Of a stretch of 64,000 nucleotides of DNA, positions 1-64,000 are shown one piece after another (the stretch's first letter is position 1; each line of letters opens with the position of its first letter). The translations under genes and the position numbers were made by a program. The stretch is from positions 6,450,368-6,514,367 of the forward strand of contig NC_057759.1 in NCBI RefSeq assembly GCF_004010195.1. Direction: 5' to 3'. Source of the DNA: Chiloscyllium plagiosum. Lineage: Eukaryota. The notes beneath the pieces are model-generated. The model saw nothing but the letters and a program-made list of their open reading frames with translations, made no database searches and had not been told where the DNA came from.

Positions 1-320
1 ATAGAGTGGACATGGAGAAGATGTTTCCACGAGTAGGAGAGACTAGGACCCGAAGACACAGCCTCAGAGTGAAGGGAACTACCTTTAGAATTGAGATGAG
101 GATGAATTTCATCAGTCAGACAGTGGGGAGTCTGTGGAACTCATTACTGCAGACGGATGTTATTATGTCTTTAAGACAGAGATAGATAGATTCTTGATCA
201 GTAAGAGGATCAACCATTAAAAAGAGAAGGCAGGAGAATGGAGTTAAGAAACATATCAGCCATGATAGAATAGTGGAGCAGACTTGATGGGCTGAATGGT
301 TGCTATATCTTATGGTCTTG
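1..320 (+). mobile_element. CR1-type LINE 3' end fragment
   Basis: ORF2 C-terminal motif sequence (gtggacatggagaagatgtttcc ... gaatttcatcagtcagacagtggggagtctgtggaactc) followed by a tcttatggtct-type tail. Confidence 0.7.
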
Positions 321-499
321 GTTACTAAGAGACTACTAGACTGTGATGCAATAGACAGTTTATGGCCTCAGATTCAGAGCTTTCTGAGCATGTGCTATGA
401 GTCAGCCACACTAAAAAGTGTTCGGGCAGCTGTACAAACAATACAACATACGGGCTAGGAACCCTCTGGATTCTGCTTCTCCCATTCTTTAAGGCTGTG

Positions 500-1400
500 G
501 CTGGTCTCATCGCAGTCTCAGCTCCAATGTCCTGCCCCTGCTCCCTTTAACCCCTCACTGGTGGACAATCTGTCTGTTCCCTCCTTCAATTTATTTAGTG
601 TCCCGACATGCCCCCACACACTGGAGGGTAAATTCCCAGAAATTTCCACCCCCTCTCCCTTGGAGAGGAAGCCATTCGTCACCATCTTTGTGTTCAATCT
701 GTCCGGCCCCCTTCTCCTGAAATAAGGATCCTGTCGTTCTAAATTGCCCCACATGAGGAAACATCCTCTCTCCGTCTCCTTTGTCAATCCCACCCCCTTT
801 AGCATCCTATATCCCTCAGTTGGATCTCCCCTAATTCCTCTAAACTCCAGAGAGTATTGGCCTAAATTGTTCAATCTCTCTTTCGACAACAAACCCCTCA
901 TCTCTGAACATGAAATATTCAAAGTCACGTTACAGTTACTTGGCATCTTGGATGTAGAATACACATCCCAAAGTGAGTTAGTCATAGTTTCCGAGATGTC
1001 CACAGCGCAGGAAAAATGGCCCATTGGCCGATCGAGTCTGTGCCGGTCAGAAAAAAATCACCTTGCCATTGTCTAATACCACTTCCCCAGTACTTGACCC
1101 ATAACATTAGCGTCACGAGTGCACATCTTAATCCTCCTTCAATGTGATGACGGTTTCTGCCTCTCCCACCCTGACAGGCAGTGAGTTCCAGATTCCCCAC
1201 CACCTTTTGGTGAACAAGTTTTTCCTCACATACCCGCAAAACCTCCTGGCCCTTACCTTTAATATATGCCCTTCCCACCTCACTTTCAATCCACTCTGCT
1301 GTAAGGACTACAACCCCAGTCTGTCCAACTTCTCTTCCTCACTGAAACTCTCCAGCCCCCAATTCAGTATGCTGGTAAATCTCCCTGTTCATCCTCTCAC
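500..1400 (-). mobile_element. Two decayed CR1/L2-type LINE 3' fragments
   Basis: Minus-strand translation resembles LINE RT C-terminus (ERLNNLGQYSLEFRGIRGD..GYRMLKG); a related copy lies at ~62190-62580 (+). Confidence 0.6.
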
Positions 1401-1792
1401 AGTTCATTGAGATATATACTGTTGGTAAAATGTCTTGTCTTTTATTTACAACTTACTCAAATCATGCATCAGGAAGGAAACACCAGTTATTTTGCAGTGA
1501 AAAAGAGGGCAGTTAATTTTTAATCAGCAGAGTTATGTTTTTAGCAGGTGGTTAATGTAAAGTCACCATTGTCTCATTAGAAAGAGAGAGAAAGAGGTGT
1601 GGGCGAGAAAAAGAAAGAAAAAGCAACAACTGTTTTACGGTTTAACCTGAGGGTCACCACATCTAAGGCACAGGGGATGATCATTCACAGCAATCTCAAC
1701 CAGAGCAGCAATTGAACCACATGCTGTCAGTGTGACGATACATTGTAAGCGAACTATAGAATCAACTGAGCTAACCAGAGGCAATAACATTG

Positions 1793-2112
1793 GGTTGCAT
1801 AGTGGCTCAGTGGTTAGCATTGCTGTCTCACAGCACCAGGGACCCGGGAACAATTCCAGCCCCAGGGAGTGCACATTCTCCCCTTCTCTGCGTGGGTTTT
1901 GTTCAGACACTCTGGTTTCCTCCCACAATCCAAATATGTGCAATTTAGATGAATTGGCCGTGCTAAATTGCCCATAGTGTGAGAGTTATGCAGGCTAGGA
2001 GGGTTAGCCAATGCAAATACGGAGTTGCAGGGATTAGGGTAGAGTGGTGTGTCTGGGTGGAATGCTATTCAGAGGGTCAGTATGGACTCAGTGGGCTGAA
2101 AGGCCTACTTCC
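1793..2112 (+). mobile_element. HE1-like tRNA-derived SINE
   Basis: gtggctcagtggttagcattgctgtctcacagcaccagggacccggg head, gaattggccgtgctaaattgcccatagtg core, cacactgtaggattctatg tail; related copies at 19998, 23897, 34334, 55934. Confidence 0.8.
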
Positions 2113-3069
2113 ACACTGTAGGATTCTATGATGTGCAGGTTAGGGGATTGGCCATGGTTAATACAGGGTTACAGGGATAGGGTCAGGGTCTGTTTGGGAT
2201 GTTCTTCACTGGCTTGGGGCAGACCGAATGGGCTGAATGTTCTCTTTCCACACTGTATGGATTGTGGTGACATCAATGCTTAGCTCAATGGTGTGGGGCA
2301 ATTTATTCTGATCTCAATTTTGATGAGATTCACTTTCAGTTTCTGAAATAGTGGGGAAGCAAAATTCTGTGTTTTCAGCTCCCCAGGGTATGTCCTGGAG
2401 ATTTGAATTTGAATCTTGCTGTGGCAGGTGGTGAATTTGGAATTTGATTTTAAACAGAAACAGATCTGGAATTAAGACTCTAATGATGACTGTTGTCAGG
2501 AACAAACAACCATCTGGTTCAAAATTGAAGACAGAGGTGAGGAGGAATTTCTTCTCTCAGAGGATTGAGAGTCTTTGGAACTCCTTACCACAGAGAGCTG
2601 TGTGTGGGGAGCAGGTTTATAGCTGGGGTAGATATAATCTTGATCAGTCAGGGAATTGAGGGTTACATGTTAAGTGCAGGAAAGTGAGCATGAGAAATCG
2701 GGCATCAGTCATGATGCTATTGAATGGCTGAGCAGGCTCGAGGGGGTGAATAGCCTTCTCCTGTTCTTGTCTGTGATGAAATCTGCCCTCCTTAACCGAT
2801 CTAGTCTGCACGTGATTCCTAACCCATTCCAAACGCTTCACTGCCTTCTGGCTGAGCAAATTGTTTGGTTCAAGGACACTTCGGAATCGCATCCACTTCC
2901 CACTTTGGCAGAGATGGCCACATCCTGTTCAGAGTATAGAGAAATAACATTTGTCAGGGTCACATGCTTTGCCAAGAGAAATTGGTCTGTATAATGACCC
3001 CAGATATTCACAGCTCCTCCTGTACACTCTGATCGTCTTTCAGACAAATTTGTTATTCTCATCCATTTT

Positions 3070-3835
3070 CATAGAGTCATACAGCATGGAAACAGGCCCT
3101 TCAGCCCAACTCGCCCGTGCCAATCAGGTTTCCCAAACTCAACTAGTCCCATTTGTTTGCATTTGGCCCATATCTCTCTAACCTTTCTTATCCATGTACC
3201 TTGCCAACTGTCTTTGTAATGTTGTTATTGTACCTGCCTCTACCACTTCCTCTGGCAGCTCATTCCATATACACACTGCCCTCTGTGTGATAAGTTTACC
3301 TCTCCCCTCAGCCTCCAACGCTCCAGAGGATAATAGCTCCCAGCTTATGCATCTTCTCCTTATAATTCAAGCTCTGTACTTATAGTCACATCTTTGTAAA
3401 TCTTTTTCTGTACCCTTTCTAGCTTAACCACATCATTTCCACAGCAGGTTAACCAGAATTGTACACAGGATTCTAGAAATGGCCTCACCAATATCCTGTA
3501 CAGCTGTAACATTATGCTCCAACTGCTGCCGTCAATGCTCTGACCAGTGAAGGGAAGCAAGCCAAACGCTGCCTTCACCACCATATCTCACTGCAATGCC
3601 ACATTCAAGGAACTATTCATCTGCACCTCAAGTTCTGTTTGTTCGTAAAAACACTCCCCAGACTTGTTCTATTTATAGTATAAATCCTGCCCTGGTTTGC
3701 CTTACAAAAATGCAACACCTTGCATTTATTCTAGTTAAACCTTATCTGCCATTCTTTGACCCACTGGCCCAGTTGATCAAATATCCCTTGTACTCTTAGA
3801 TAACCTTCTCTGTCCACAATGACACCAACTTTGAT
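3070..3835 (-). mobile_element. CR1 LINE RT/3' fragment
   Basis: Minus frame reads MLQLYRILVRPFLESCVQFW...KLERVQK, a typical CR1 RT C-terminal motif; catagagtcatacagcatggaaacaggcc tail. Confidence 0.8.
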
Positions 3836-3868
3836 CCTGCTCCTGTTTCTCTTCTGACCTGTTTTCAG

Positions 3869-3985
3869 GCTGACCAAGCAAAGCAGCAACCACCCTGCAC
3901 CACTCTGAAGCACACAGATACAGGAGGGGATGAGGAACCAGATCAAGAAGAAGAGGGAAACGTTTATGCCAACTTTCCACATTGA
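3869..3985 (+). pseudogene. Candidate terminal exon of an immune-type receptor cytoplasmic tail (copy 1)
   Basis: Polypyrimidine tract + ctgacctgttttcag acceptor; open frame ADQAKQQPPCTTLKHTDTGGDEEPDQEEEGNVYANFPH*; lacks 9 nt (including the ITIM Tyr) relative to copy 2. Confidence 0.45.
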
Positions 3986-4647
3986 CAAATTGATCAATAA
4001 CAATCCTACCTTTCAGCAAATAAGGAGGACAAGGAAGAGAAGGCATAGCAATGTCACATTTCTGTGACTAGGCTAGGTTTTGTCTCAATTCAGTCAGCAA
4101 GATGTCAGTTCCAAAGATGAACTTGTCCTGAAAAATCATCTACATAATTGTCTCTCCCACAACCTTCAGTATGTCAGTTTATCTCACTGTAGCACAATCT
4201 AACTGTTGATGGCAGAGATTTTAGATTTTATGCTGTTCCTTCCTAACGAGAGCCTCCATTTGATCTCCTGGTGAATGGGTTGAGGCAGATGTGCCAATGA
4301 ATTGAACATACTCTACACATTTTGTGTAAATTGTGGTGAGCTGGAAATAATTCAAGGTGGGATTGTTTTCTAGCCCGATCTTCATTGCCCTCTAACTTCA
4401 TCACTGTCAATACACATCCAACTCTCTTTTCATACCTCATATGGAATCGACCTCCACCACGATCCCAGGCTGCACAATCCAAAATCCTAATAACTGTGAG
4501 TAAAGACATTTCTCCTCATCTCACTCCTCTCTCTCTTGCTGACAATCTTGAAATTGTGACCTCTAGTTACTGACATACGAACTAGTGGTAACAAAATATT
4601 CCTCTTATCCCTGGCAAAATTCTTCATAATTTTGAACACCTCCATAA

Positions 4648-5497
4648 NNNNNNNNNNNNNNNNNNNNNNNNNNNNNNNNNNNNNNNNNNNNNNNNNNNNN
4701 NNNNNNNNNNNNNNNNNNNNNNNNNNNNNNNNNNNNNNNNNNNNNNNNNNNNNNNNNNNNNNNNNNNNNNNNNNNNNNNNNNNNNNNNNNNNNNNNNNNN
4801 NNNNNNNNNNNNNNNNNNNNNNNNNNNNNNNNNNNNNNNNNNNNNNNNNNNNNNNNNNNNNNNNNNNNNNNNNNNNNNNNNNNNNNNNNNNNNNNNNNNN
4901 NNNNNNNNNNNNNNNNNNNNNNNNNNNNNNNNNNNNNNNNNNNNNNNNNNNNNNNNNNNNNNNNNNNNNNNNNNNNNNNNNNNNNNNNNNNNNNNNNNNN
5001 NNNNNNNNNNNNNNNNNNNNNNNNNNNNNNNNNNNNNNNNNNNNNNNNNNNNNNNNNNNNNNNNNNNNNNNNNNNNNNNNNNNNNNNNNNNNNNNNNNNN
5101 NNNNNNNNNNNNNNNNNNNNNNNNNNNNNNNNNNNNNNNNNNNNNNNNNNNNNNNNNNNNNNNNNNNNNNNNNNNNNNNNNNNNNNNNNNNNNNNNNNNN
5201 NNNNNNNNNNNNNNNNNNNNNNNNNNNNNNNNNNNNNNNNNNNNNNNNNNNNNNNNNNNNNNNNNNNNNNNNNNNNNNNNNNNNNNNNNNNNNNNNNNNN
5301 NNNNNNNNNNNNNNNNNNNNNNNNNNNNNNNNNNNNNNNNNNNNNNNNNNNNNNNNNNNNNNNNNNNNNNNNNNNNNNNNNNNNNNNNNNNNNNNNNNNN
5401 NNNNNNNNNNNNNNNNNNNNNNNNNNNNNNNNNNNNNNNNNNNNNNNNNNNNNNNNNNNNNNNNNNNNNNNNNNNNNNNNNNNNNNNNNNNNNNNNN
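4648..5497. other. Assembly gap (850 N)
   Basis: Run of N. Confidence 1.
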
Positions 5498-5984
5498 TGT
5501 AGTTGTGGTCACATCTTTGTAAATCTTTTCTGTACCCATTCAAGCTTAAGAACATCCTTTCGACAGCAAGTTGACCAGAACTGTGCGCAGTATTCTAAAA
5601 GTGGCCTCACTATATCCTGTACAATTGAAACATGATGCACCAACTTCTGTCGTCAGTTTTCTGACCACTGAAGGCAAGCATGCCAAAACCCACCTTCACC
5701 AGTGTCTAGCTGCAATGCACATTCAAGGAACTTTTTGTTTGGAGGTCTTTTTGTTTGGAAACACTGCCCAGACTTGTGCTATTAACAGTACAACTCGTGC
5801 CATGGTTTGCCTTACCAAAATGCAACACATCATATTTATCTAAATTAAACTTCTTCTGCCATTCCTTGACCCACTGGCCCAGTTGATCAAATTTCCATTG
5901 TACTCTTAGATAACCTTAGATAACAATGCCACCAAATTTGGTCCTGCTCCTATCTGCTACGTTTCTGTGTTGACCTGTTTTCAG

Positions 5985-6115
5985 GCTGATCAAGTGGAGC
6001 AGCAACCACCCTGCATCACATATGCCGCCTTGAGGCACACAGATACAGGAGGGATGAGGGACCAGGTTAAGAGAAAGCGGGAAATGCTTATGCCAGCCAT
6101 CCATGGACATCGTGA
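5985..6115 (+). pseudogene. Candidate ITIM-bearing terminal exon (copy 2, frameshifted)
   Basis: Same acceptor; ADQVEQQPPCITYAALRHTDTGG with ITIM ITYAAL at 6015-6032, then a 1-nt deletion relative to copy 1 and a TAA stop in the copy-1 frame. Confidence 0.45.
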
Positions 6116-6369
6116 GACAGCACAGAAGGAAGCCTGTGAAGCTTCACAAATCGATCAATAACAATCCTACCTTCCAGCAAATAAGGAAGAGAAGGCAGAG
6201 CAATGTCACACTTCTGCGACCAGGCGAGGCTTTGTCTCAATTCACTCAGCAAGATGTCAGTTCCAAAGATGGACTTGTTTTGAGAAACCATCTGAATAAT
6301 TGTGTCTCTCCCAACCCTCAATGTGTCAGTTTATCCCACTGTAGTACAATCTAACTATTGATGGCAGAG

Positions 6370-7350
6370 ATTTTAAGTTTTATGCTGTTCACTCCTAACT
6401 TTAGCATCCATTTGATTTCCTGGCAAATGGGTCCAGGCAGAGGAGCCAATGAATTGAATGTATTCTCCATCTTTTCTTGAAATTGTGGTGGAAATAACTT
6501 GCTTTCCTGCCCTATCTTCAATGCCCTCTAACTTCATCACTGTCAATACACATCCAACTCTCTTTTCATACCTCACATGGAATCTAGCTCCATCATGATC
6601 CCAGGCTGTGCAATCCAAAATCCTAACAATTCTAAAGACATTTCTCCTCAACTCACTCCTCGCTCTCTTGCTGACAATCGTGAAATTGTGACCCCTAGTT
6701 ACTGAACATGCTAACTAGTGGTAACAAAATATTCTTCTTTCCCCTACCAAAATTCTTCATAATTTTGAACACCTCCATAAGGCTCTTCTCTTAATCTTCT
6801 GTGCTCCAAGGAAAAGGAGCCTGATATCACTAATCCTTCCTGCTATGTAAAATTCTTCATTCCTGCTATCATTCTAGTAAATCTTCAGTGAATGCTCTCC
6901 AGAGCTTGAAGTTCCTTCCTTAAATAAAGTGCCCATTACTGAACACAAATGTGATGTGACCAATGATTTGTGGAGGTGGAGCATCACTTCCTCTGTTTTA
7001 TACTCAATGCCTCTATTTATAATGGCAAGGATCCTATTACCCTTCTTCACAACGGTTTCAGCTTGCCTGGCCAACTTCAGAGAATGATAAACATGAACCC
7101 CGAGGTCCCTCTACTCCAGTGGTACCTTCAAAGATGTACCATTGACCCTGCATTGTTGCTCTGTGTTTCTGGTAGCAAAATGCATTACCTCACATTTCTC
7201 TGCATTGTAATTCATCTGCCAGACATCTGTTCATTTGGCCAACTTGTCAATCTCCCTGTGAAGTCACTCAGCATCATCCTCCCAATCACTCATCTCCCTG
7301 TTAGTATCAACTGCAAATTTAGAAAATATATCATCAACACCAACTCCTAA
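6370..7350 (-). mobile_element. CR1-type LINE RT + 3' end
   Basis: Minus frame KKGNRILAIINRGIEYKTEEVMLHLHKSLV (CR1 RT); a related family member lies at ~63320-63850 (+). Confidence 0.8.
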
Positions 7351-7364
7351 TTATTTATATAATC

Positions 7365-8060
7365 AACGTAGTTATCATTGTGTACTTGTCAGTTACTTCT
7401 ATGTACATGTAATTATCAATCTCTACCTGTCCATTACCCCTATGTGAATGTATGAGTGTGTTTACCAGTCTGTTCCTGCTCTGTGAATTGAGACTGTCAA
7501 TATTAACCTGTATTTGTCAACTTCTCCTATATCAATATGTGAATGCAGTTACCAATCTAATGCCCTCAATCTCTGCCTTGTCAATATGTGAATTTAAATA
7601 TAGATTTCTACCTGACAGGTCCTCTTTGATGAATGTGAACAGTGGAGGTACTAATATGTACCTGTGAGATTCTGCACTGTGAATATGTGTGTCATTATCG
7701 GAGCATGCTTGTCAGCTTATGCTGTGTGTAACTTGGAGTGTAGTTATCATTCTGTTCCTGTCAGTTTTAGCTTCGTGAATGAGAGTGTAGTTATTAATCT
7801 GTCCCTGACAGCTACTGCAATGAGAATGTGTGACTTAAGTTAACAGAAACAGACTAACAGATGGAAACTGTTTGTCACACATTTGCATCACAGTAAGTGT
7901 GTCATCATCATTTGTTTGTCTGTTTCTGCAACATGAATGAGTGTGCAGTTATCAGCCTGTACTTGTCAGTTTCTACTCTTGTGTATCAAAGTGGAAGCTA
8001 GTAATATTCTCTGTGTCCATGTGATACATTCTGTGATATTTGTTATCAGTGTGTTGAGAC
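7365..8060 (+). repeat. Degenerate ~48-bp tandem satellite (gttatcaatctgtacctgtcagtttctgctgtgtgaatgtgagtgta-like)
   Basis: Recurring gttatca...cctgtcagtt...gtgaatgtg units at roughly 46-50 bp spacing. Confidence 0.75.
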
Positions 8061-8184
8061 TGGATCTTAATCTTTTCTGCATTTTGTGATTTTTTTTTCA
8101 GTTGATTGTCAGTCTGTCGGGGTGGGTGGGGGAGAGAGGAGATAAGGTGATGGCAGAAGGGAAACTGCTTTATTCTGAGAACCA

Positions 8185-9560
8185 AATTTATTCTTGTGCT
8201 GCCGGTCTGTACCTCAGTTCATGTCTCCTGTAATGAATGGGAAACAGCCAACTTTCTTTAATTGTTAGTGCCTGTAGGAATCACGTGCATGTGAAAACAT
8301 AACACATTGCAACAGAACGGATTTTGTGCTGTTCTTCAGAGTCAAGGTAGGAAACACAATCGACCTTTTGTATCTTGTATAGTGCAGAATCTAACAGGCA
8401 GTAATGATATAAAATGTCTTTCTTCAGAATGCCATTAGTTTTTGTTTTAGTGCATATTGATGTTCTTTTCTGAAAACTGCTGAACTAACAATCAATGTAA
8501 ACTGAATCCATTTGCAACAAAGTGAAAGGGTGACAAACCATTCAATTGCATTGGAGCTGACTGACCATCATCAAAATCAGAGTCACAGATATGTTACAGC
8601 TCAGAAGCAGACCATTCAGCCGATTGTGTCTATACTGGGGCATTCTCTTATACGTCAGTTCTGCAGTAATTGTTGGAAACGTGAACTTCATCGACTGATT
8701 GTCAGTATCTATATGGAAAGGACAATTTGACACCAGTTCTGCTGTCATCTTACTTTTAATAACTATAATGCTAGTTTTGATATGTTTCCCACAATCTCAA
8801 TGACAGATCATTGGTCAGATCACATTTGTGTTCAGTTCTGGGCACTTTATTTAAGGAGGATTCTCAAGCTCTGAAAAGGGTTAATTGGAGGTTTATTTGA
8901 TCTCATTCATTTATGTTCAGTTGTGAGTTTGTGTCTGAGTGTAGCATGAACTCTGTAAATGAACTCTTTTCAATGATGCTTAGTTTTATTACATTTCAGT
9001 CTCAGATTATTGTTACATTGTGTGTGCATGCCTGTATAGTAGAATTTATCAGGCACTGCTGGGCACTATATATCCTCAGCTGTGATAAGTGATGTTAAGA
9101 GTCAATTCATATCTGGAAATAATTGAGGCCAAATGTTATTCTTTTCCTTTCAGCATCCAGTGGCTGAGTGAGAGTGAATTTATTCTTGTGCTGCCGGTCT
9201 GTACCTCAGTTCATGTCACCTGTAATGAATGGGAAACAGCCAACGTTCTTTAATTGTTAGTGCCTGTAGGAATCACGTGCATGTGAAAACATAACACATT
9301 GCAACAGAACAGATTTTGTGCGGTTCTTCAGAGTCAAGGTAGGAAACACAATAGACCTTTTGTATCTTGTATAGTGCAGAATCTAACAAGCAGTAATGAT
9401 ATAAAATGTCTGTCTTCAGAATGCCATTAGTTTTTGTTTTAGTGCATATTGATGTTCTTTTCTGAAAACTGCTGAACTAACAATCAATGTAAACTGAATC
9501 CATTTTCAACAAAGTGAAAGGGTGACAAACCATTCAATTGCATTGGAGCTGATTGACCAT
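8185..9560 (+). repeat. 384-bp near-identical direct repeat (8185-8568 and 9177-9560)
   Basis: Both copies start aatttattcttgtgctgccggtctgtacctc and end ggagctga(c/t)tgaccat, constant offset 992. Confidence 0.95.
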
Positions 9561-9685
9561 AATGTTTGTTGCACAGAAAAGACAATTGACTAATTCACTT
9601 CTATTTTCTGATGTAGACAGAACATTACCCTGCTCTGTTGTGTGATGATTAGCCATTAACAGTACTCTTTGGTTACTCTAAAGTA

Positions 9686-9900
9686 CATAGAACATAGAAC
9701 ATAGAAGAATACAGCGCAGTACAGGCCCTTTGGCCCTCGATGTTGCGCCGATCCAAGCCCACCTAACCTATACTAACCCACTATCCTCCATATACCTATC
9801 CAATGCCCGCTTAAATGCCCATAAAGAGGGAGAGTCCACCACTGCTACTGGCAGGGCATTCCATGAACTTACGACTCGCTGAGTGAAGAACCTACCTCTA
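9686..9900 (-). mobile_element. 5'-truncated CR1-type LINE 3' end with (catagaa)3 tail and 43-bp flanking direct repeats
   Basis: catagaacatagaacatagaa tail; flanks 9643-9685 and 9901-9943 differ by 1 nt. Confidence 0.85.
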
Positions 9901-10653
9901 TGATGATTAGCCATTAACAGTATTCTTTGGTTACTCTAAAGTAGGAAGGAGGAAAGGAAAAAGAGTTGTTTTTTTTTGTTATGCAGTGCACAATATGTAA
10001 ACTACCACATTCAGTTTATTGAACAATCAACACTGTTCAACTCTGATTGAAAATAAAATGAGCAGTTCTGCAAACCTACTAATTTTGGCCTTTTCTTTCC
10101 CTTTCTCCACTGCTTTGAAGGGTGGTTATTAGATTCCACTGATACATTTTGTAAATTGCAGATAGATGTCTGAGATACCTTCCAGGGAGGGGGAAGAGGA
10201 ATGCAAAGTTCTTTGTTGAAAATTGCAACCAATTTTGAAAGAAGTACATAATTATCTAAAAACAAAAAGAGTTTCTGGTTGGACTGAACCAGACAAAAAG
10301 AAGTCTTCTACTGCAATTTGAAGAAATGGAGAATAATGATGTGATAAAAATGGGAATGGCAGCTCCTCTGCTACCATGATACATTTATGCAATTGAATGC
10401 TGCATGATCAGGATGAAAATTGTTAACTGGTTGTTTCTGATCGTGCAGACTCAAAAGTTTTCTAGGGCCTGATTCTGTGCTTTAGGCGACTCTGACAAGG
10501 AATTTGTGGGTAGAAATCATTTTGAATGTAACATTTTTCAATGCCAATGGAACAGTATGGCTGTTAGACATTGTAACATGTGTCAGGATGGTGTATGTTT
10601 TTGAGAGTCATTGTAAGTCTGAGAAAGAGACAGACTGACAGACACTGACACAC

Positions 10654-12570: not shown

Positions 12571-13714
12571 ATTTAATGCTGTGTATATTTCAGATGAGGA
12601 TTCATTCAAGTTGATTGGAAGTGGGTAGCATGCATTGTGAATATAGATAAAAAATATAAACTTCTATTTCCTTGGTGGTGTTTAACTCTTGGTTTGAACA
12701 TATCTTTCTGAAATGGTGCTCAATGTGAACCTCACTCAGTCCACTCTGTGACAGTGGAAAGGATGTCCTTCGCTCTGATGGCAGTAACTTATCAGCTGGT
12801 CACACTTGGCTCGGTACCAAGGAAATATTACATTGTCTTCATCCTTTGAGTATTTGTCTGGAGGAAGACAGAACAAATACCCCCTGTAAATCAACATCAG
12901 TTGTGATTGACAACATCAATGTAACATTCAGTTAATAATCATTAGGATTTTTTGTTCAACGCCAGTAATTTAAACAGAACCACCAGTCTGATTCCACTCC
13001 TGCTCTGAGCTGCTCCTTGTCCATTTTTTTTCTTAAAATTCTAATACCAGTTGAGTGAGATTTGGAAACTAAACAACACCCATACAGCTCCATGAATGGG
13101 GCCACCTGATGCAAGTGGGTATGTGGATATGTGAGTTTATACCTGTCAGTTCCTGCTTGGTGAATGTGTGAGTGTAGTTATCAAACTGTAAATTTCAGTA
13201 TGTGGTAAACATATTTACATATTCACACAGCAGAGACTGGTAGAGTCTGATTGATAACTAGAGAATCATAGAAATTAATACAGCATTGCGGGGATTCAGC
13301 CCATGTTGTCTATGCCAACGCAGACACACCCAGATGCCCCTTCTCATCCCACTTTCCTGCCACAGCCTGTAACCTTGCAGTTTACAACAGTTGATGTGCA
13401 GTTCCAGGGAATTTTTGTTTTAAAAAAAAATTAGGCAGCGAATTCCGGATACCCACCACTCTCTGCATAACAAACATATTTCCTCATATCATCTAATCCT
13501 ACAGCCACTTAGCTTGAATCTGTGATCCCTATTTTTTGAACTCTCTGCTAAAGGAAACTACTCTACTGTCTACTCTAATGTCTCCCTCTCACTAGTTAGT
13601 TAAAAAAAATCACTCAACACCATGTTATAGTTCAACAGTTTTACATGGAAGTGCACACTTTCGGAGTGCTGCTGATTCATCAGGTGGCCCACTATTTAGT
13701 ACTGTAGACAACAC

Positions 13715-15056: not shown

Positions 15057-15826
15057 CCTGAGGACGGTGAAGGCAACACATACGGAGAGCATAGTGTAGT
15101 GTTGCCGGTAATTTAACGTGTCATTTGTCATTTAATTTGTTACGTTATAATTTGTCATTTTTCCCAGACACTGATGTTACATATTGCTATTTCACTGGAG
15201 ACGTTTAAAGTGCTCCTTTACAACGCTATCATACTTCCACAGTCCGTGTTTCCTGTATTGACAGCATAATGTCAACAGCGAAAAACAAAAGCCAAACAAT
15301 GAAATTTCACCACTCTTCGGAAAACATTTTGTTACTGCACTTTAGCTGCCTGTGTAGTCTGTCATCAATTATCTTTCTATAAATGCATCACAGCCAGTTT
15401 CGTATGGCTCTAACCGCATTAGGAATAGCTGAAAATGACCCAACTAATCGGAAATCCATGAGTTTATAAACAGTCTGTTCGCTCACCGCCTGTGCTGATT
15501 GTCCAGTGCGGTCATGGGGTCCCTACCCGTAAAGAGAGAATACATTAAAGTGCACTCGGTCATTTAATGCGCTCATCGGGAAGAATGTTCATACCGCCAT
15601 CTCCAAATCATGACTACTGTCGGAGATTAGAACTTCTTGATGAAATGTCTTTCCGCTCATTGTCCCTCAGCTGTAACTGAACGTGGCTGAGGAGGGTGGG
15701 GTGGAAATTGGCACCAAAACATCCACCGGTTTCTTTCAGATTTGAAAATGCAGTCAAGATGTAGAAAGTAGGAGGCAGTTTGAATGAGAAGAATGCATGT
15801 GTAATTAATAGTGGGTTTGTTTTTAG

Positions 15827-16066
<240 letters not shown>

Positions 16067-16116
16067 ACGGAGCCTGGCCGGCCCTGCACATTCACCCAGA
16101 GAGAGAGAAACACAAC

Positions 16117-16155
16117 GGCTCTTTTCAGAGCCACTAAACTAGCCAGAGAGAGCCG
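16117..16155 (+). terminator. H3 histone stem-loop and HDE
   Basis: GGCTCTTTTCAGAGCC (16117-16132), ACTAA, cagagagagccg. Confidence 0.95.
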
Positions 16156-17512
16156 AAATCCACCATTGGATACGGCCCATTGAGTCTGAACCGAGCCTCC
16201 CAAGAGAGTGTGAACTAAAAACAAACCCACTATTAATTACACATACATTCTTCTCATTCAAACTGCCTCCTACTTTCTACATCTTGACTGCATTTTCAAA
16301 TCTGAAAGAAACCGGTTGATGTTTTGGTGCCAATTTCCACCCCACCCTCCTCAGCCACGTTCAGTTACAGCTGAGGGACAATGAGCGGAAAGACATTTCA
16401 TCAAGAAGTTCTAATCTCCGACAGTAGTCATGATTTGGAGATGGCGGTATGAACATTCTTCCCGATGAGCGCATTAAATGACCGAGTGCACTTTAATGTA
16501 TTCTCTCTTTACGGGTAGGGACCCCATGACCGCACTGGACAATCAGCACAGGCGGTGAGCGAACAGACTGTTTATAAACTCGTGGGTTTCCGATTAGTTG
16601 GGTCATTTTCAGCTATTCCTAATGCGGTTAGAGCCATGCGAAACTGGCTGTGATGCATTTATAGAAAGATAATTGATGACAGACTACACAGGCAGCTAAA
16701 GTGCAGGAACAAAATGTTTTCCGAAGAGTGGTGAAATTTCATTGTTTGGCTTTTGTTTTTCGCTGTTGACATTATGCTGTCAATACAGGAAACACGGACT
16801 GTGGAAACATGATAGCGTTGTAAAGGAGCACTTTAAACGTCTCCAGTGAAATAGGGCCCATTGTTCTTCTCTTTAACTGTTAGCGTCGTGGGTGCCGGGG
16901 GATGGCGATAAGTAATATTGGCGCCAAGACATCAACGGCTTATCTTCAAATTTGAAAATGCCTGCCAACGTGTACAAGAGCAGGATGTTTTAGAGGAGAA
17001 TGTATGCGTTGATTGTGTTTTTCATTGCAAAATTGGAGTTCAGACAGTCTCAGTTTACCCCATCCCCTCCTTTTCAGCTGAAAAATGCCTCGCTGGTGTT
17101 CAATCTGCTCTCTCTCTCTCTCTCGCTCCAGAGGATGGGGATAAAAGACTGTATATGAACCGAGCAGAGAGTAAAGCGCAGAGGGTCAGGGACGACTCCT
17201 TCAGCGACTGACGAGTTACTGCTCTGGATCAACCCAACCAGTCCCAACTTCAACGAACTGTGAAACTAATGGAAGGTCAAACGCGATCTGGGACGTTCGT
17301 AACACCAGTCTAAACTCATTGGACATTACCTAAAGCCAGATCCCTCAGGCAGTGAGAAATAGCGTAGTTCCAGACACTGTTGCAATCGTATTTTATGATA
17401 TATTCTTCCTCTGCTCCCACAGACAGTAACAGTATCCAATGAAAAGGAGATAGGATTTCCTCGATGTCAGGTACAAAGCCCAGGGCTCTGAAATACGTAA
17501 TTAGACAGAGAT

Positions 17513-17584: not shown

Positions 17585-18230
<646 letters not shown>

Positions 18231-19300: not shown

Positions 19301-19674
19301 TCACTTGGAGCTGGTGTACTTGGTCACCGCCTTTGTACCCTCCGACACGGCGTGCTTGGCCAGCTCCTCGGGCAGCAGCAGCCGCACGGCGGTCTGGATC
19401 TCCCGGGAGCTGATGGTGCTGCGCTTGTTGTAATGGGCCAGGCGGGAAGCCTCCCCCGCGATGCGCTCGAAAATATCGCTGACGAACGAGTTCATGATGC
19501 TCATGGCCTTGGAGGAGACGCCGGTGTCAGGGTGAACCTGCTTCATTACTTTGTAGATGTAGATGGAGTAAATTTCTTTCCTGGACCGCCTCCTTTTCTT
19601 GCCGCCCTTCGCTGGCGCCTTCTTCACCGCTTTCTTAGCGCCCTTCTTGGACGCTTGCTGTGCTTTCTTCTCAT
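19301..19674 (-). pseudogene. H2B: Histone H2B lacking its start codon
   Basis: Frame [38 protein letters not shown]...KYTSSK* runs directly into an A-tract; substitutions at conserved sites (KEIY for KESY, PEELA for PGELA). Confidence 0.93.
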
Positions 19675-19840
19675 TTTTTTTTATATTTCAAAAATACACT
19701 TTATTCATAAAATAATTTGATGGTCTGTACAGTTGGTCATGCCATACATACGTAAACATTTACATACAGAGATCAGAATTTACCATTTTTTTAGATACAG
19801 GTCTGTACGTTTATCAATCATATGTCCATATATTTAGCTG
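19675..19840 (-). mobile_element. Poly(A)-tailed retroelement 3' end (L1/Tx1-like) fused to H2B
   Basis: Minus strand ...ttttatgAATAAAgtgtatttttgaaatatAAAAAAAAA joined to the H2B N-terminal codons. Confidence 0.65.
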
Positions 19841-32800: not shown

Positions 32801-32912
32801 TCCCTGCGCCGTCCGCTCGCTGCCTTGAAGTTGCTCAGTGCCGCCCCCAGCAGCTTCATTGCTGACCCAGTTCAGACTGTCCCAGAAAGAGATTCAGCGC
32901 AGAGTTCTCAAC

Positions 32913-33587
32913 AGGAGCGACAGTGCAGCCGCCGAAACGGCCCCTCCAGCCGCCGCTCCCACCAAAACCAAGGCTCCCAAGAAGAAGGCGGCGGCTCCCA
33001 GGAAAAAAACACCCGGTCCCGGGTTGGGAGAGCTGATTCTGAAGGTTGTCGGGGATATCAAGGACCGCAAAGGGACGTCTCTGTCCGCTGTAAAGAAGGG
33101 GCTGGAGAGAAGCGGGATCGATGTGGGAAAGCGAAAGGCACAGATCAAGATGAGTATCAGGAGGTGCCTGGCGAACGGCTCCCTTGTTCTGGTCAAGGGC
33201 CATGGCGTCTCCGGCTCCTTCAAACTCCCAAAGAATCCAGTCAAGGCAAAAGCGGGAAAGAAGGCGGGAACATCCGCCAAGAAACCGGCCGTGAAGAAAT
33301 CACCGGCCAAGAAGGTGACAGCAAAGAAATCCCAGACCAAGAAGGCGACAGCAAAGAAATCCCCGGCCAAGAAGGCGACAACCAAGAAGTCCCCAGCCAA
33401 GAAAGCGAGCGGCAAGAAGGCGGCACCGCCAAAGAAAGCGGTGAGCAAAGCAGCGCCAAAGAAACGGACTCCCGTGAAGAAGGTGAAAAAGGCCAAGGGC
33501 CCTAAAACCCCCAAACCCCTCAGCAAACCGGCTAAAAGCAAGGCCAAGCCCAAAGCGAAAGTGACCAACACAGCAGCAAAAAAATGA
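32913..33587 (+). pseudogene. H1: Histone H1, full-length open frame with start codon read as AGG
   Basis: aacAGGagcgacagtgcagccgccgaaacg = (M)SDSAAAETAPP; winged-helix motif LVLVKGHGVSGSFKL; Lys/Ala/Pro CTD; TGA at 33585-33587. Confidence 0.9.
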
Positions 33588-40866: not shown

Positions 40867-41924
40867 CTATAATTGTCAAAGACAGGTAACTGCAGAAATA
40901 ATCTCAAATTATCATTTAGATAGAGATACTGGCAGTGAGTGGATAAAGTTCAGAATCCCAACAGTTTCTGGAAACTAGTATGGAGAATAGGTGAAGAACA
41001 GAATGTCCCAGTCTGGACACAAATGGGCTGAATGGCTGTACCAATTCTGTGACTCTACCATAAATTTCATAATGCAGAAGAGATTAAGGCCCATTCACAA
41101 CACCCTAAAATCTAATATCACAGAATCAATCACAGTCACAGAGAATTCTTTTTCCTAAATTCATTCATGGGATGAGAGAATCACTGGTGAGGCCAGCATT
41201 TATTGCCCATCCCTAACTGCCCAGGGGGTAGTTATGTGTCAGACACCTTGCTGTGGGTCTGGAGACACATGTAGGCCAGACCAGGTAAGGATGGCAGCTT
41301 CCTTCCTTAAAGGGCATTAGTGAACCAGATGGCAAATAAGAATAGATTCCTTGTCACCATTGGACTCATAGAATATTATTGGCTGTCAGCGAATTAAGCA
41401 ACTTTTGATGCATGAGAGTTGAAAGTGACTGGTACTGATTGAGCACTTGACGTTCAGTCACACAGCACAAACTGACAAGGTTAGCTCAATTCCTGAACTC
41501 TCTCGTGGACACAACAAAAACTGACAGGCGGTGATTGATAGCTGCTCTCACACATTCACTCTGTAGAAACTGAAAGGGAGAGCATGATACTTAAGCACAC
41601 AACCCCAAACCCCCACACACACTTCAAAAACACTGGCAGGTACAATCTGATAAATGCATTTGAAAATTTATAAACTAGACATTGACAAATACAGATTCAC
41701 AGCTACATCTTGAGTTACACAGAGCAGAATATAACAGGGACAGATTGGTCAATCACACTCAAATGCACATGGCAGGACATTTCCGAGGAAGACATTCTCA
41801 TTCACAAAGCAGAAAATTATTGGAACAGATTGATAACACGCTATTTCAAATTACTTAAATTGACGTGTATGGTTTGATAATGACACTCTGATATTCACAG
41901 GAGAAACTGACAGGTAGAGATTGA

Positions 41925-42572
41925 TAACAGAAGAAATCAGTGTTACATTTGAGGTCTAGTGACCCTTTCTCAGAACTGAGTGTGTGCATTTTCCTAGCTG
42001 CCACGTGGTCTTCTCTATTCTTGGAAAACTGAGTGTAGATTGGATGTCCACTTGCCAAACACCGACATTCCGTCCAGAAAACAAGACCCTGAGCTTCCGC
42101 TTGCTGCAGTGCTCCAGCTCAAACTCAGAGCAAGCTGGAAGAACAGCACCTCATTTTCTGGTTGGGAACACAACAGCCTTCTGGACCCAATATTGAGTTC
42201 TATAACTAGGGCTAGAGCTTTCCCATGTCATTACCCAGAACCTCTCACACCAGGCCTTGTTGTCACAAGGTCTGCTATTATACACCAACAGTCACTAACA
42301 GTCCCTGTTAATAGTGATTCATCTTCCTCGTCTGACCGTGATCTTTGGATTCTATATCCATCTACCATTTACTCCTGACCCTTCAACATACCCTACCTTC
42401 TGCAGAAAAACTAATCATTTCCTGGCTACCATCAGTTCTCAGGAAGGGTTACTGGACTGGAATTTTTAACTCTGATTTCTGTCCACAGACTCTGTCCAAC
42501 CTGCTGAGCTTTTCCAGCAATTTGATTTTGTTTCTGATTTCCAGCATCTGCAGTTCTTTTGGTTTTCATTTA
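41925..42572 (+). mobile_element. Penelope-like element 3' fragment
   Basis: KLEEQHLIFWLGTQQPSGPNIEF, like a GIY-YIG C-terminus; inverted terminal piece; ccagcatctgcagttc end. Confidence 0.75.
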
Positions 42573-42849
42573 GAGATTAATAACTATATTTTCATATTCA
42601 CAGAGCAGAAACTACCAGGGAAAATTGATAACTACATTCACATGTTCCCAAAAGAAAATTTGTCAGGCAAACATTGATAAATACACTCACATTTACAATT
42701 CGGACCCTGATTGGGAAGGATTCTTAACTAAACCTTCACAAAGCAAAACCTGACAGGGACTGTTAGTTTTTAACTTCTCCTATTCACATAGCAGAAACTG
42801 GCAGGCTTAGATTGACAATTACTCAAACATATTCACCAAGCAGATATCC

Positions 42850-43362
42850 TCAGGAGGCTAAGGAAATTCACCGTGTCTATAACGACTCCTGCAAATTTTT
42901 ATCGATGCACCACCTATTGATGTGTCACAGTGTGGTATGGCTACTGTTCTGCCCAAGACCACCACGGTCAGTTGTGAACAAAGCCCACTGAAAGCAGCCT
43001 TCCATCCAAAGGCTCCATTTATACTTCCTCCTGTGTTGGGAAAGCAACCAGCATAATCAAAGACCCATCTTACTCCGGTTCTATACTCCTCCACCCTGGT
43101 CTGTCAGGTAGAAAATACAGAAGTTTGAATATACCGTCCAACAGATTCAAGAACTGATTCTGTGCTGTTATTAGACTTTTGAATGGACCTCTCAAATTTT
43201 AATGTTATTCTCTCTCTCTCTCTGCACCATTAACACTGTATTCCAGATTCTGTTCTATTGCCCTAATGCACTTTTAATGATATGATCTGCCTGAAAGGCA
43301 CTCAAAATAATACTTTTCATTGTATCTCTGTGCATGAGACAATAATAAATCAGATCAAATCA
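42850..43362 (+). mobile_element. Rex1/Babar-like LINE 3' fragment
   Basis: tggtatggc...aaagaccc...gtcaggtagaaaatacagaag...aacagattcaagaac pattern and aataataaatcagatcaaatcaa tail. Confidence 0.55.
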
Positions 43363-45039
43363 AGTGGATAACTACACTCACATGTCGCAGAATCTGAGAG
43401 GTACAGATTGATAGCTACAGTCACACAACCTGGCACGAAAAGATGAATAAATACATTCAAACCCTGACATTACAGCACCTGACAGGAAGGATTGATAACT
43501 AAACTCTCTTATTCAAAAGCAGAAATTGATAGTGACAGATGAAAGCTCAGCTCACACATTCACATAGCATAAACTGGCAGGAATTGACAATTACACAGAC
43601 ATATTCACCAAGTAGAAACTGACAGCTGTAGATTGATAACTATATTTATGTATTCACACAGCAGAGTCTGAAAGGTACAGATTGACAATTACACAGGTAG
43701 AAATTGACATGTAGAGAATGACAACTGTACTATTCACATATTGACAGGGAAGAATCTGACAGGGATAGATTGGTATTGACTCTCCCAAATTGACGTCGTA
43801 GAAACAGGTTGACAATGACACTCTGGTGTCAAATACCAAAACCTGACAGGTATTGATGGATAATTGCACTGAGAAATTGATTATAGCTAAAACTGACAGG
43901 TGGAGATCAATATCTACATTCACACAGAAGATACTGACAGGTACAAATTGATGACTGCATTTAATATTCATAAAGCAGAAACTGGCAAGGAGATACTGAG
44001 AATGACACACCCGTTCTCAAAGCTGAAACTGACAGGTTCAGGTTGATAACTACACAGTCAGATACACAGCAGAAACTGTTAGGGAAAGATTGTTAAGTAA
44101 ATTCACACGTTCACAACGGCAGAAACTGACAGGTATATATTGATAACTAAACTCACACATCCCCTTCAGTGAAGCACATAGGGACTGAATCCTATTTTTT
44201 TAAAATGTATTTATCAATCAGTCTCTGCCAGTTTCAACTCTGTGGTTATGAGTTCAGTTATCAATCTATACCTGTCAGTTTATAGTGTGTGAATGTAGTT
44301 ATCAATCTGTCCCTGTCACTCTCTAGTAAATACATTTTGGATATTGCAGAGAGTGACAGGGACAGATTGATAACTATATTAACTCTCACATTTGCACGGC
44401 CTATACTGACAGGTACAGGTTGACAGCCGTACTTCCACATTCACCTCACAGGAACTGACAGGTATAGATTGATAAGGAAACTCTCAGATCCGGATACAAA
44501 CTTGTTTTGGGTAGCCCCATTGTGGAGCTGTAGAAGTGTTGGTTAGTATCTGATTCTTAGTGAATTGGCATAGATTTCTTTTGTTACAATCACCAGACAA
44601 AGAGCAACTCAGGCCAAGAATGCAGTCAGACCTGTAGTTCTGTTTGAAATGCTGGCTTGAAAGAAACACAGCCTCATAATTATAAAATGAATATTACATT
44701 GAAATGTTTGATACTGTCAAACTCACTTAATGTTGATTTACAGGGGATGTCTCTTCTCTCATCCTCCAGACAATTACATGAAGGAGCAAGACAGTATCAC
44801 ATTCTCTCGGTACGAAGCCAAGTGTGATCAGTTCCTTCCAATTAACAGCAGGTCAGACTGAAAACATACTTCCACAGTCACAAAGCAGTTGAATTAAGCA
44901 CACATGGAACTCAATTTCTGGAGAGAAGTTTTCACAAGAGTAGTCAAATACCACCAAGCAATTATAACTTTTTTTATCCCTCTCCATTCTCAATTCACCT
45001 CACCCGATTTCCAATAAATGTTATCATTCACAGCCATTG

Positions 45040-57043: not shown

Positions 57044-57675
57044 GGAATTGGAAGACTATTTGCAATGAGGAGACATAAAACCAAGCATCACTTCCCAATC
57101 TGACCAAGCTGCCGAGTTTATTGCCACCTGAATATCATTGGGTTTTGAAGTAAAAAGCACCGCCCACAGTGGGGGAGAAACCGTACGTGTGTTGTACACA
57201 TGGACAAGTCTTCAGCAGATCATTGCCTGTCACAATATATAAATACAGCCACACTGGGGAAAGGCCATTCATCTGTTCCAAGGGTGGGAAAGGATTCACT
57301 CGATCATCCACTTTGCTGAAACCCGAGCAAGTTCACACAGAGGACAGACCTTTGAAATGCTCAGAATGTGGGATATGCTTTAAAAACTCTGGGGCACTGA
57401 TATCCCAACAACATCCTCACAGTGACGAGAGATCCTTCATGTGCTCTCACTGTGGGTGTGGGTTCAAGCCATCATCCAACCTCATTAAACACCAGCGGAT
57501 CCACACTGGGGAGAGACCATTCACCTGATCACTCAGGAAAGGATTTTCTCATAAATCCAACCTGTTAAAACACCAGCGATCTCTCGGAAGGTAGAGACTG
57601 TTCTGATTTGACTGTGGGCAGAGATTCATTGTGAAATCCAAGCTGCTGAAACACCAGCATATTCATGAGAAATGA
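57044..57675 (+). pseudogene. Degenerate C2H2 zinc-finger array exon (~6 fingers)
   Basis: Acceptor ttttgtttttaatgaacattacag; TGERPF linkers; only CSHCGCGFKPSSNLIKHQRIH keeps all four ligands; TGA replaces Cys in finger 5, followed by frameshifts. Confidence 0.85.
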
Positions 57676-61669: not shown

Positions 61670-63850
61670 CTTTGTGAGTGTGTGAGGTCTTGTATTTTGG
61701 AAAGACAAATCAAGGTAGGAGTTTCATGTTGAATCATAAAGCCTTAAGGAGTGTAGTGGAACAAAGGGAACTTGGAGTTCAAGTTCACAGTTCTGTCAAA
61801 GTGGAGTAATAGGAAGTTGGAAGGATTGAAAAAGGCAAGTTATCATTTAAATAGGAGAGAAAGTTCAAAATGTCAGTGCAAAGGCGACAGCAGGTCACAA
61901 GGAAGACATTTATTGTGAAAGGAATTGAGTACGCAAGTACATAATTGTTGCTGCACCGGTTTCCACATCCGGTGTACTGCGGACAATTTTGGTCCCTTTC
62001 CTTGAGGATGGATGTAGTTGAGTTGGAGGGAGTTCAAAGCAGATCACTGAATTGATTCCAAGATGAAAAGTTTAGCCTTCTGAGAAGAGTCTGGTACAAT
62101 TTTGATCTCTTGAGGACAGAGGCAGTTCAGAAGAGATTCACCCATCATTTTCAGCGATGAAAGGTTTGCCTGAGATGAGAGATTGAGCGGTTTCTCTGGA
62201 GTTTAGAAGAGAGGAAAACTAACTGAGGGCTATAAGATGCTAAAGGGGGTATTGACAAAGGAGATGAAGAGAGGATGTTTGCTCTTGTGGGAGAATCTAG
62301 AACGAGGGGTTATTGGTTCAGGATAAGGAGCTGGGTAGATTGAAAACAGAGATAAGGAGGAATGAACTATCTCAAATGAGGAAGGGACACATAAATCTGT
62401 GGGATCACCCCCCCCACCACCCAGGACACTGCATAAATTGGAGGAGGAGACAGACAGATTGTTAATCAGTGATGGGTCAAAGGGAGTGTTTCCAGGAAAG
62501 TGGAGTTGAGGCTGAGATGGGGTAGCGGAGCAGGTTCCTGACGGGTTAAATGGACTCAACCTGATCCGAGACTGTATGTTCTTGTGGAGTTATATTGTTA
62601 TTAGCAAAACAACTAGGATGGAGAAAATGAAGTTTGATTTAACAAAATAGGTTTTAATTCATGAACATTCAAAAATAAAGACAAAATTGATTCAACACAA
62701 ATTTAGCGAATGACGGTTGAAAAAAACAGAAAGACAATACATTTAGGGGGGTAAAATAACTAAAGCAGGTTCAGGAGCAGAGGGAGCCTGGGGGTATATG
62801 TTCACAGATCAGTGAAGGCGGCATAACAGGAGGAGAGCAGTTAATAAAACACACAGCATCCTTGGCTTTATTAATAGGGGCAGAGACCAAGAACAAGGAG
62901 GTGATGTTGAAGTTGTAGAAGACACTGGTGGACCTCAGCTGGAGTGTCAGAGAGAGAGAGAGCGAGAGGAGAGAGTGATGACTGATAGGTGGTCGTTTAA
63001 TCTGAGGGTTACCATGCCTCACACAAGGAGAAGAGATGGAGAGTCCTTCATGGTAACCTCAGCAGTGAGAGATTCAAACCCACGCTGTCAATCTTTCTCC
63101 ACATTTCAAACCAGCCATCCAGCCAAATGAGCTAACCCAACACCCAACAAAAGCAGAGGGCAGAAAAGAAATTAACTCCGGTGACAGCACAAATATTGGA
63201 GAATAGTAGATTATATTGGACATAAATCTTTGATCTGTTGGGTATTTCTTTGTAAGTGTATAACACCTTACCGTCACCGGCAACAAAAGCTGAATTTAGA
63301 AATACGTTTGACAAAGGGAGTTAGCACTCCATTACCCAGGCTGGTTTTGTTCTGTTCTGGACACCTTATTTAAGGACGACTGTTCAGATCCTTCAGACGG
63401 TGTGAAGAAGATGTATGGGAATTATACCAACGATGAGGGATTTAGATACAGGGAAAGGTTCAGGAGATTGAGCTTATTCTCTTTCGAGCAGAGAAGATGA
63501 AGTGGTGACCTTATTGAAGTGTTGAAAATTTGAACAATTCTGACGGGAAAGCAAGTTATTGTTTCCCATTCATTGGTTTATTAGTAACTGGCTCGAAAGA
63601 TTTTCAAGATTGTCAGTGAGAGAGTGAGATGAGGAGAAACTTATTGGGTTGTTGGGTTTGGAATGTGCTGCTTGGGAGGCAGATTCCATAGGAGGTTCGA
63701 AAAGAGAGCTGGATATAAATTTGAAAGGGATGATGTTAGAGGGCTACAGGGATAGGGCTGGAGAGTGGGACTAGCTGGGTAGCTCTTTCAGGAGCTGGTA
63801 CAGACAAGAGTAGCCTCCTTCTGTACAGTAAAAGTTTATGATTCTATGAA
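61670..63850 (+). mobile_element. Patchwork of old CR1/L2-type fragments and a SINE-like repeat (~62975-63135, related to ~1635-1775)
   Basis: Degenerate RT C-terminal motifs; shared ggtttaacctgagggtcacca-like segment. Confidence 0.55.
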
Positions 63851-64000
63851 CATAAAAGTTCTGAACCAGATTCTGGACAATCCCAGGAGGTCATTCCTTG
63901 GGACCTTGGCTCAGTGATCTTGTTGCCAGGGATTTGTGCATGCGAACAGCAGCAAATTGCTGTCACAAGTGGGATTGGAACTTGGTTGGGTAATGGTCTG

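Follow-up and report, generated by a model that had tools for sequence, protein, structure and literature searches.

PECAM-1 is a multi-Ig type I receptor with ITIMs in its tail. In the family of Fc receptors and FCRL molecules, PMC10003336 gives a second leader exon of 21 bp as a hallmark. This exon is present in only a fraction of the Xenopus XFL genes according to PMC2413239, which also describes the XFL expansion as a large clustered FcR-like family with fragments and pseudogenes, a two-exon leader and multi-exon tails; one class of XFL has an NxxR motif in the TM segment, and FcR-like families are presented there as diversifying in the form of paired receptors. As regards sharks, PMC4016189 (2014) reports that no FcRL homologues were found in shark sequence data, and FcRL molecules are said to be lacking in cartilaginous fishes in a 2026 review (PMC13337447). 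In bamboo shark B cells fcgr1a-like, fcrl3 and fcrl5 are highly expressed, according to PMC11372145. RefSeq gives FCRL-like names to proteins of at least ten shark species. No paper on a shark FCRL family was found by title or by the start of the abstract, in a coverage outside of which most subscription journals remain.

The window analyzed here is a stretch of 64,000 nucleotides of Chiloscyllium plagiosum, located on the contig hereafter called C50. It contains two copies of a short exon that the initial annotation had read as the last exon of an ITIM-bearing receptor. Copy 1 (3869..3985, + strand) is preceded by a pyrimidine tract ending with AG at 3867-3868 and is read over 38 codons up to a TGA at 3983-3985. 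A 9-nt in-frame deletion after 3897 has removed the ITIM tyrosine, and no ITIM consensus remains in this copy. Copy 2 (5985..6115, + strand, the stop position of the parent gene being 6113-6115) is preceded by a pyrimidine tract ending with AG at 5983-5984. It contains the ITIM ITYAAL at 6015-6032, then lacks one G at 6051-6053 (1-nt deletion); a TAA is found in the original frame at codon 29 (6068-6070), as it is in two other copies of the genome, L010 and L017. Both splice acceptors, the reading of copy 1 from 3869 to its TGA, the ITIM followed by a frameshift in copy 2 and the clean in-frame loss in copy 1 were thus described correctly. The 9 nt absent from copy 1 are present in its closest paralogue (L002, about 96% alike), so that their loss is a derived state. 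The frame assumed for the exon also holds, i.e., the intact gene enters the same exon in phase 0.

The two exons are part of duplicated segments, both on the + strand: 3375..4647 for copy 1 (i.e., intron end, tail exon and 3' sequence, reaching a gap) and 5498..6780 for copy 2. Upon 1227 aligned bases, 1050 are identical (85.6%). An assembly gap of 850 N (4648..5497) separates the two copies, and no contiguous sequence joins them.

Each of the two tail exons is a copy of exon 14, the terminal exon of a shark receptor with five Ig domains, one membrane pass and two ITIMs. A profile was built from 11 open tails and searched against longer proteins; it matched six RefSeq shark models, named FCRL-like, Fc-gamma-RI-like, PECAM-like or uncharacterized, with E values from 1e-21 to 7e-17, i.e., well beyond chance. 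No Pfam family matched the tail exon. RefSeq shark models with the same terminal exon are 71-81% identical, in this exon, to the tail that comes first in the profile. They include XP_043539740.1 (P0006), XP_059498323.1 (P0002) and XP_060712751.1 (P0004), and a further protein, P0026, is from Mustelus asterias. P0006 and its isoform P0020 have Chiloscyllium plagiosum as source label. Both map to G000:C50:2531147-2502959, on the minus strand, in 14 exact blocks, the last of which is the tail exon. The intact parent gene, with 14 exons, is thus located on the same contig as the window, at about 3.9 Mb from it. The proposal that the exon ends an ITIM-bearing shark receptor of the Ig superfamily is therefore borne out, homologous exons being joined to Ig and TM exons in several sharks; on the contrary, the family cannot be called unannotated, since RefSeq models exist for it (the three accessions above and others).

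The parent product has a leader encoded by two exons, five Ig domains, a single uncharged TM segment and several cytoplasmic exons. Its tail contains five tyrosine motifs, among which two canonical ITIMs (Y590 and Y625 of P0006). Canonical ITIMs and a TM segment without charged residue are what is expected from the sequence of an inhibitory receptor. By analogy with the established knowledge of ITIM receptors, these motifs would be phosphorylated after ligand binding and would recruit SHP-1/SHP-2, leukocyte activation being thereby damped. The motif pair (I/V)xYAT(L/I) and a later Y(A/E)N terminates 13 of the 16 named shark proteins, and the remaining three are without it. In the predicted isoforms P0005, P0018 and P0010, from two shark species, the TM exon is skipped and the tail is retained.

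The comparison of the parent with known receptors points to the FCRL family. The best PDB match of its ectodomain is FCRL5 (171 bits, E 2e-49), with 72 bits for FCRL4 and 71 bits for Fc-gamma-RI; the first match that is not an Fc receptor is titin (62 bits). P0026 reaches 242 bits with FCRL5 vs. 63 for its next PDB match. Among 1.84 billion representatives, the ten top matches of normal length that were examined are shark models bearing FCRL-like or PECAM-like names; many giant multi-Ig proteins rank high as well. Ten further clusters, hand-chosen and non-shark, were considered: seven are named FCRL (gar, eel, frogs and toads, squirrel) and three are not. The parent resembles mammalian FCRL by its two-exon leader, its uncharged TM segment and its ITIMs, but differs from them by its second leader exon, with 30 nt instead of the 21-bp hallmark. 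It is for this last reason that the parent is filed as FCRL-like and not as a proven member; on the basis of its sequence, it is predicted to be inhibitory and probably belongs to the FCRL family. As for synteny, the reference set for FCRL is SLAMF8, IGSF9, DUSP23 and TAGLN2. None of 8 calponin-repeat matches and none of 43 DSPc matches is located on C50, in lower-bound searches aimed at DUSP23/TAGLN2-type genes only. A search of the genome for V-set domains, in which 150 of 1319 candidates were scored, gave no match on C50 among those scored; the domains of the family are of the C2 type.

RefSeq also uses the name PECAM for the parent, which shares with PECAM-1 the multi-Ig type I organization and the tail ITIMs. 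No PECAM-1 chain is found among 60 of the 80 PDB matches of P0006, nor among the 28 of P0026. A PECAM-1 identity was rejected since the closest PDB match is not PECAM-1, and the name looks like an automatic label.

The Xenopus XFL expansion, as described in PMC2413239, is close to what is observed in the shark as regards clustering, fragments and pseudogenes, leader and tail. Two differences must be noticed: (i) the NxxR motif of one XFL class is found in none of the 16 shark proteins; (ii) most of the inspected copies of the shark subfamily are dead. A second FcR-like subfamily, with longer ectodomains and a related ITIM tail, is present at G000:C50:3.84-3.87 (-), 6.975-7.001 (+), 4.129-4.145 (-) and 6.403-6.408 Mb (-); the exons observed at 3.84-3.87 and 6.975-7.001 Mb have open frames.

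The window locus has the tail exon and the splice phase of the RefSeq shark models (Fc receptor-like protein 2/3/4/5/6 or PECAM-like) and is colinear with the introns of the P0006 gene, but differs from them by the absence of leader, Ig1-3, Ig5 and TM exon, its other exons being disabled. The colinearity with the 3' half of the parent extends from C50:6446054 to about 6460800, i.e., from −4313 to 10455 in the window (blastn, about 70-78% alike, introns included). Intron remnants of this 3' half occupy 1..3270 (+ strand, 71-74% alike to the intact gene by blastn) and continue upstream to C50:6446054. Among them, the penultimate cytoplasmic exon (c4, 32 nt) is recognized at 1452..1483 (+ strand), with both its acceptor AG and its donor GT gone. 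The remnants of exons c1 to c3 contain frame-breaking indels, and that of the Ig4 exon is frameshifted. Only 187 bases, without any N, lie between the Ig4 remnant and the first cytoplasmic exon remnant, vs. about 6 kb in the parent, where Ig5, the TM exon and one short exon are located. The copy of the parent 3' flank is found at 7030..10455 (+ strand, 72-78% alike).

Between the tail and this flank, about 880 bases (6153..7029) are absent at that place in the intact gene. Their start is also found behind copy 1 (3984-4647) and behind many other dead copies, which suggests one lineage for most of them. The distal part of this insert resembles, by its motif, a LINE 3' end on the minus strand, and it has no match in Pfam. 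A direct repeat (98%, at least 300 bases) is present within the copied 3' flank, 8185-8484 vs. 9177-9476, the two units being 992 bases apart. Degenerate arrays of 45-49-bp repeats, in both orientations, are located at 7364-7986, 13121-13264 and 41455-44482; similar arrays occur upstream of the window as well as within intron 3 of the intact gene. The parent 3' half is represented by a second fragment, which begins at the end of the window (62633-64000), continues to G000:C50:6530406 and contains another open tail (L015).

A search of the + strand of the 110 kb upstream with 17 shark proteins of the family found no leader, Ig1-3, Ig5 or TM exon; 9,057 bases of these 110,000 are N and could hide exons, and one 713-N gap lies at C50:6444986-6445698. 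Two Ig exons located 43-48 kb upstream were considered as a source for the tails; since they lie on the minus strand and come from another subfamily, they cannot splice to them. The locus has neither a TM exon nor a usable upstream donor. Since the TM exon is absent and every upstream exon remnant is disabled, neither tail is able to end a membrane receptor from the locus as assembled. In other words, no ITIM is found in a tail behind a TM segment, copy 1 being without ITIM and the motif of copy 2 being without TM exon.

The initial annotation treated the feature as one duplicated pair. The two copies in the window are real, but they are not the only ones: the tail exon has at least 43 matches in its own genome, of which 31 on C50 (0.15 to 6.5 Mb, both strands; DNA search, 44 candidates, 40 scored). 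These counts are lower bounds, so that further intact genes may exist, and a few of the 43 matches are split pieces of one copy. From 30 loci, L011, L021 and L025 (no anchor) and L030 (long branch) were dropped, leaving 26 scored tails. Stops, frameshifts or a lost acceptor break 17 of them, nine are open, and the acceptor AG is retained in 25. Among the full-length copies of the subfamily that were inspected, three of four are broken in Ig exons (C50 4.11-4.13, 4.86-4.88 and 7.02-7.04 Mb) and only the copy at 2.50-2.53 Mb remains without such damage.

A tree of 28 tails places copy 1 in a group with L002-L005 (100/100); copy 2 joins L010 and L017 (100/99). Holding the two copies together is rejected by the AU test (p 8e-49, 27 rows). 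The lesions of the two copies, taken previously as complementary, belong to different sublineages; as the copies are not sisters, these lesions are independent. The parent gene branches separately in the tail tree, and no pseudogene is closely sister to it.

Purifying selection is not apparent in the tail copies, whose identity to the parent is 82% for the exon and 79% for the flanking intron. The omega value, which is a family-wide figure obtained with stop codons masked and not a value for copy 1 alone, is 1.27, 1.85 or 2.0 according to the model for 25 non-parent tails (L026 being also excluded from this fit), vs. 0.67-1.55 for 12 intron controls. Under MGK the value of 1.85 for the exon is higher than all 12 controls, on a thin alignment of 43 codons. 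Positive selection is not claimed from omega >1, since the estimate varies with the model (1.27-2.0), intron controls go up to 1.55 and stops were masked.

The introns kept in a colinear copy, the frameshifts, the lost exons, the lost splice sites and the lack of purifying selection are the characters of an unprocessed pseudogene. The locus, as assembled, is a broken segmental duplicate without TM exon and very likely a non-functional pseudogene fragment; the window exons most likely add two dead pieces to those known from a gene for which a model already exists. Dozens of such pieces may have been scattered over the small chromosome by repeated rounds of segmental duplication and deletion (birth-and-death evolution). 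Two unrelated pieces would have ended up side by side in the window, via rearrangement or scaffolding across the gap, and the 9-nt and 1-nt losses would be independent neutral decay.

Against the pseudogene reading, it must be noticed that copy 1 taken alone has an intact acceptor and an open frame, like the nine open tails. This, together with the clean in-frame loss of the ITIM tyrosine and the diversification of FcR-like families as paired receptors (PMC2413239), would fit the idea that both copies serve as tails in working receptor variants and that copy 1 dropped its ITIM. Paired-receptor diversification had indeed been proposed, but it does not agree with a locus devoid of TM exon and of usable upstream donor, with disabled upstream remnants, with copies that are not sisters and with tails free of purifying selection. 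Moreover, one third of random indels are expected to be in-frame, while most indels in these tails are frame-breaking. An activating partner, i.e., a charged TM residue or an NxxR motif, was found in none of the 16 named shark proteins, a sample obtained from ITIM-bearing queries and thus leaning to inhibitory members. Working variants are highly improbable. Slightly better placed, but still quite improbable, is a role without any receptor, in which copy 1 would provide the 3' end to a transcript, either non-coding or chimeric, or dead tails would be donors for gene conversion. Contigs of three small runs (X3, X4 and X6) cover parts of 3912-4643, most of the listed pieces without difference, and this may be transcription of the copy 1 stretch; the three runs come from one study and their kind is unrecorded. 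Two raw single-cell runs were sampled at about 2% and 6%: six reads of X7 aligned, none at least 95% alike, and none of X8. No RNA record was listed for 3780-4640, and the intron stretches that lack cover in X3, X4 and X6 carry no weight either way. No joint or loose end is found at the acceptor among those listed (15 of 74 joints and 24 of 659 loose ends). The retained AG and an omega above that of intron controls would also suit such a role; however, a retained AG is not surprising in copies of shared ancestry that are about 20% divergent, and the isolated branch of the parent, without close pseudogene sister, argues against conversion donors.

It could also be that the exon homology is real and that the adjacency of the two copies is a scaffolding artefact across the 850-N gap, which is compatible with the pseudogene reading. 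The gap itself, the different clades of the copies and the separate matches of each side to the parent (upstream introns for the left side and 3' flank for the right side) point in this direction. Nevertheless, 85.6% identity means that these are not two haplotypes of one place, unequal crossing-over between paralogues yields the same layout, and a similar two-piece layout exists at L008; an artefact is thus rather unlikely, though it keeps some weight. As for a transposable element or a chance open frame, the 43 repeats and the flanking LINE-like pieces could suggest it. This reading is refuted by the profile matches to receptors and by the exact 14-block mapping of P0020: in receptor proteins the segment is annotated as the terminal exon, 13 of 16 named shark proteins end with the same motif pair, and 31 of the 43 matches are on one contig. 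Its probability is practically nil.

As pieces of a pseudogene, the window exons are of small weight by themselves, and they document how heavy the birth-and-death turnover is among clustered immune-receptor genes of a shark. More weight attaches to the parent family. If it is truly FCRL, its members are named candidates for how sharks couple antibodies to leukocytes, and with a parent that is a true FCRL the origin of the Fc-receptor family would be moved back to the ancestor of all jawed vertebrates. It is doubtful that the parent would be both a true FCRL and an inhibitory receptor able to bind shark antibodies (IgM, IgW or IgNAR), with few intact genes among dozens of decayed ones.

Histone genes adjoin the receptor debris in the window, at 15187-16854, 17585-18037 (-), 19301-19687 (-) and 32829-33587 (+). 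H3-like fragments are found inside a 685-bp inverted repeat (99%). H2B-like and H1 genes have Pfam histone matches, and the 3' end of H1 is tandemly duplicated (279 bp); another gene of this region is, from its translation, presumably H2A. In human 1q21, a histone cluster is located beside FCGR1A. A C2H2 zinc-finger open frame is located at 57154-57528 (+).
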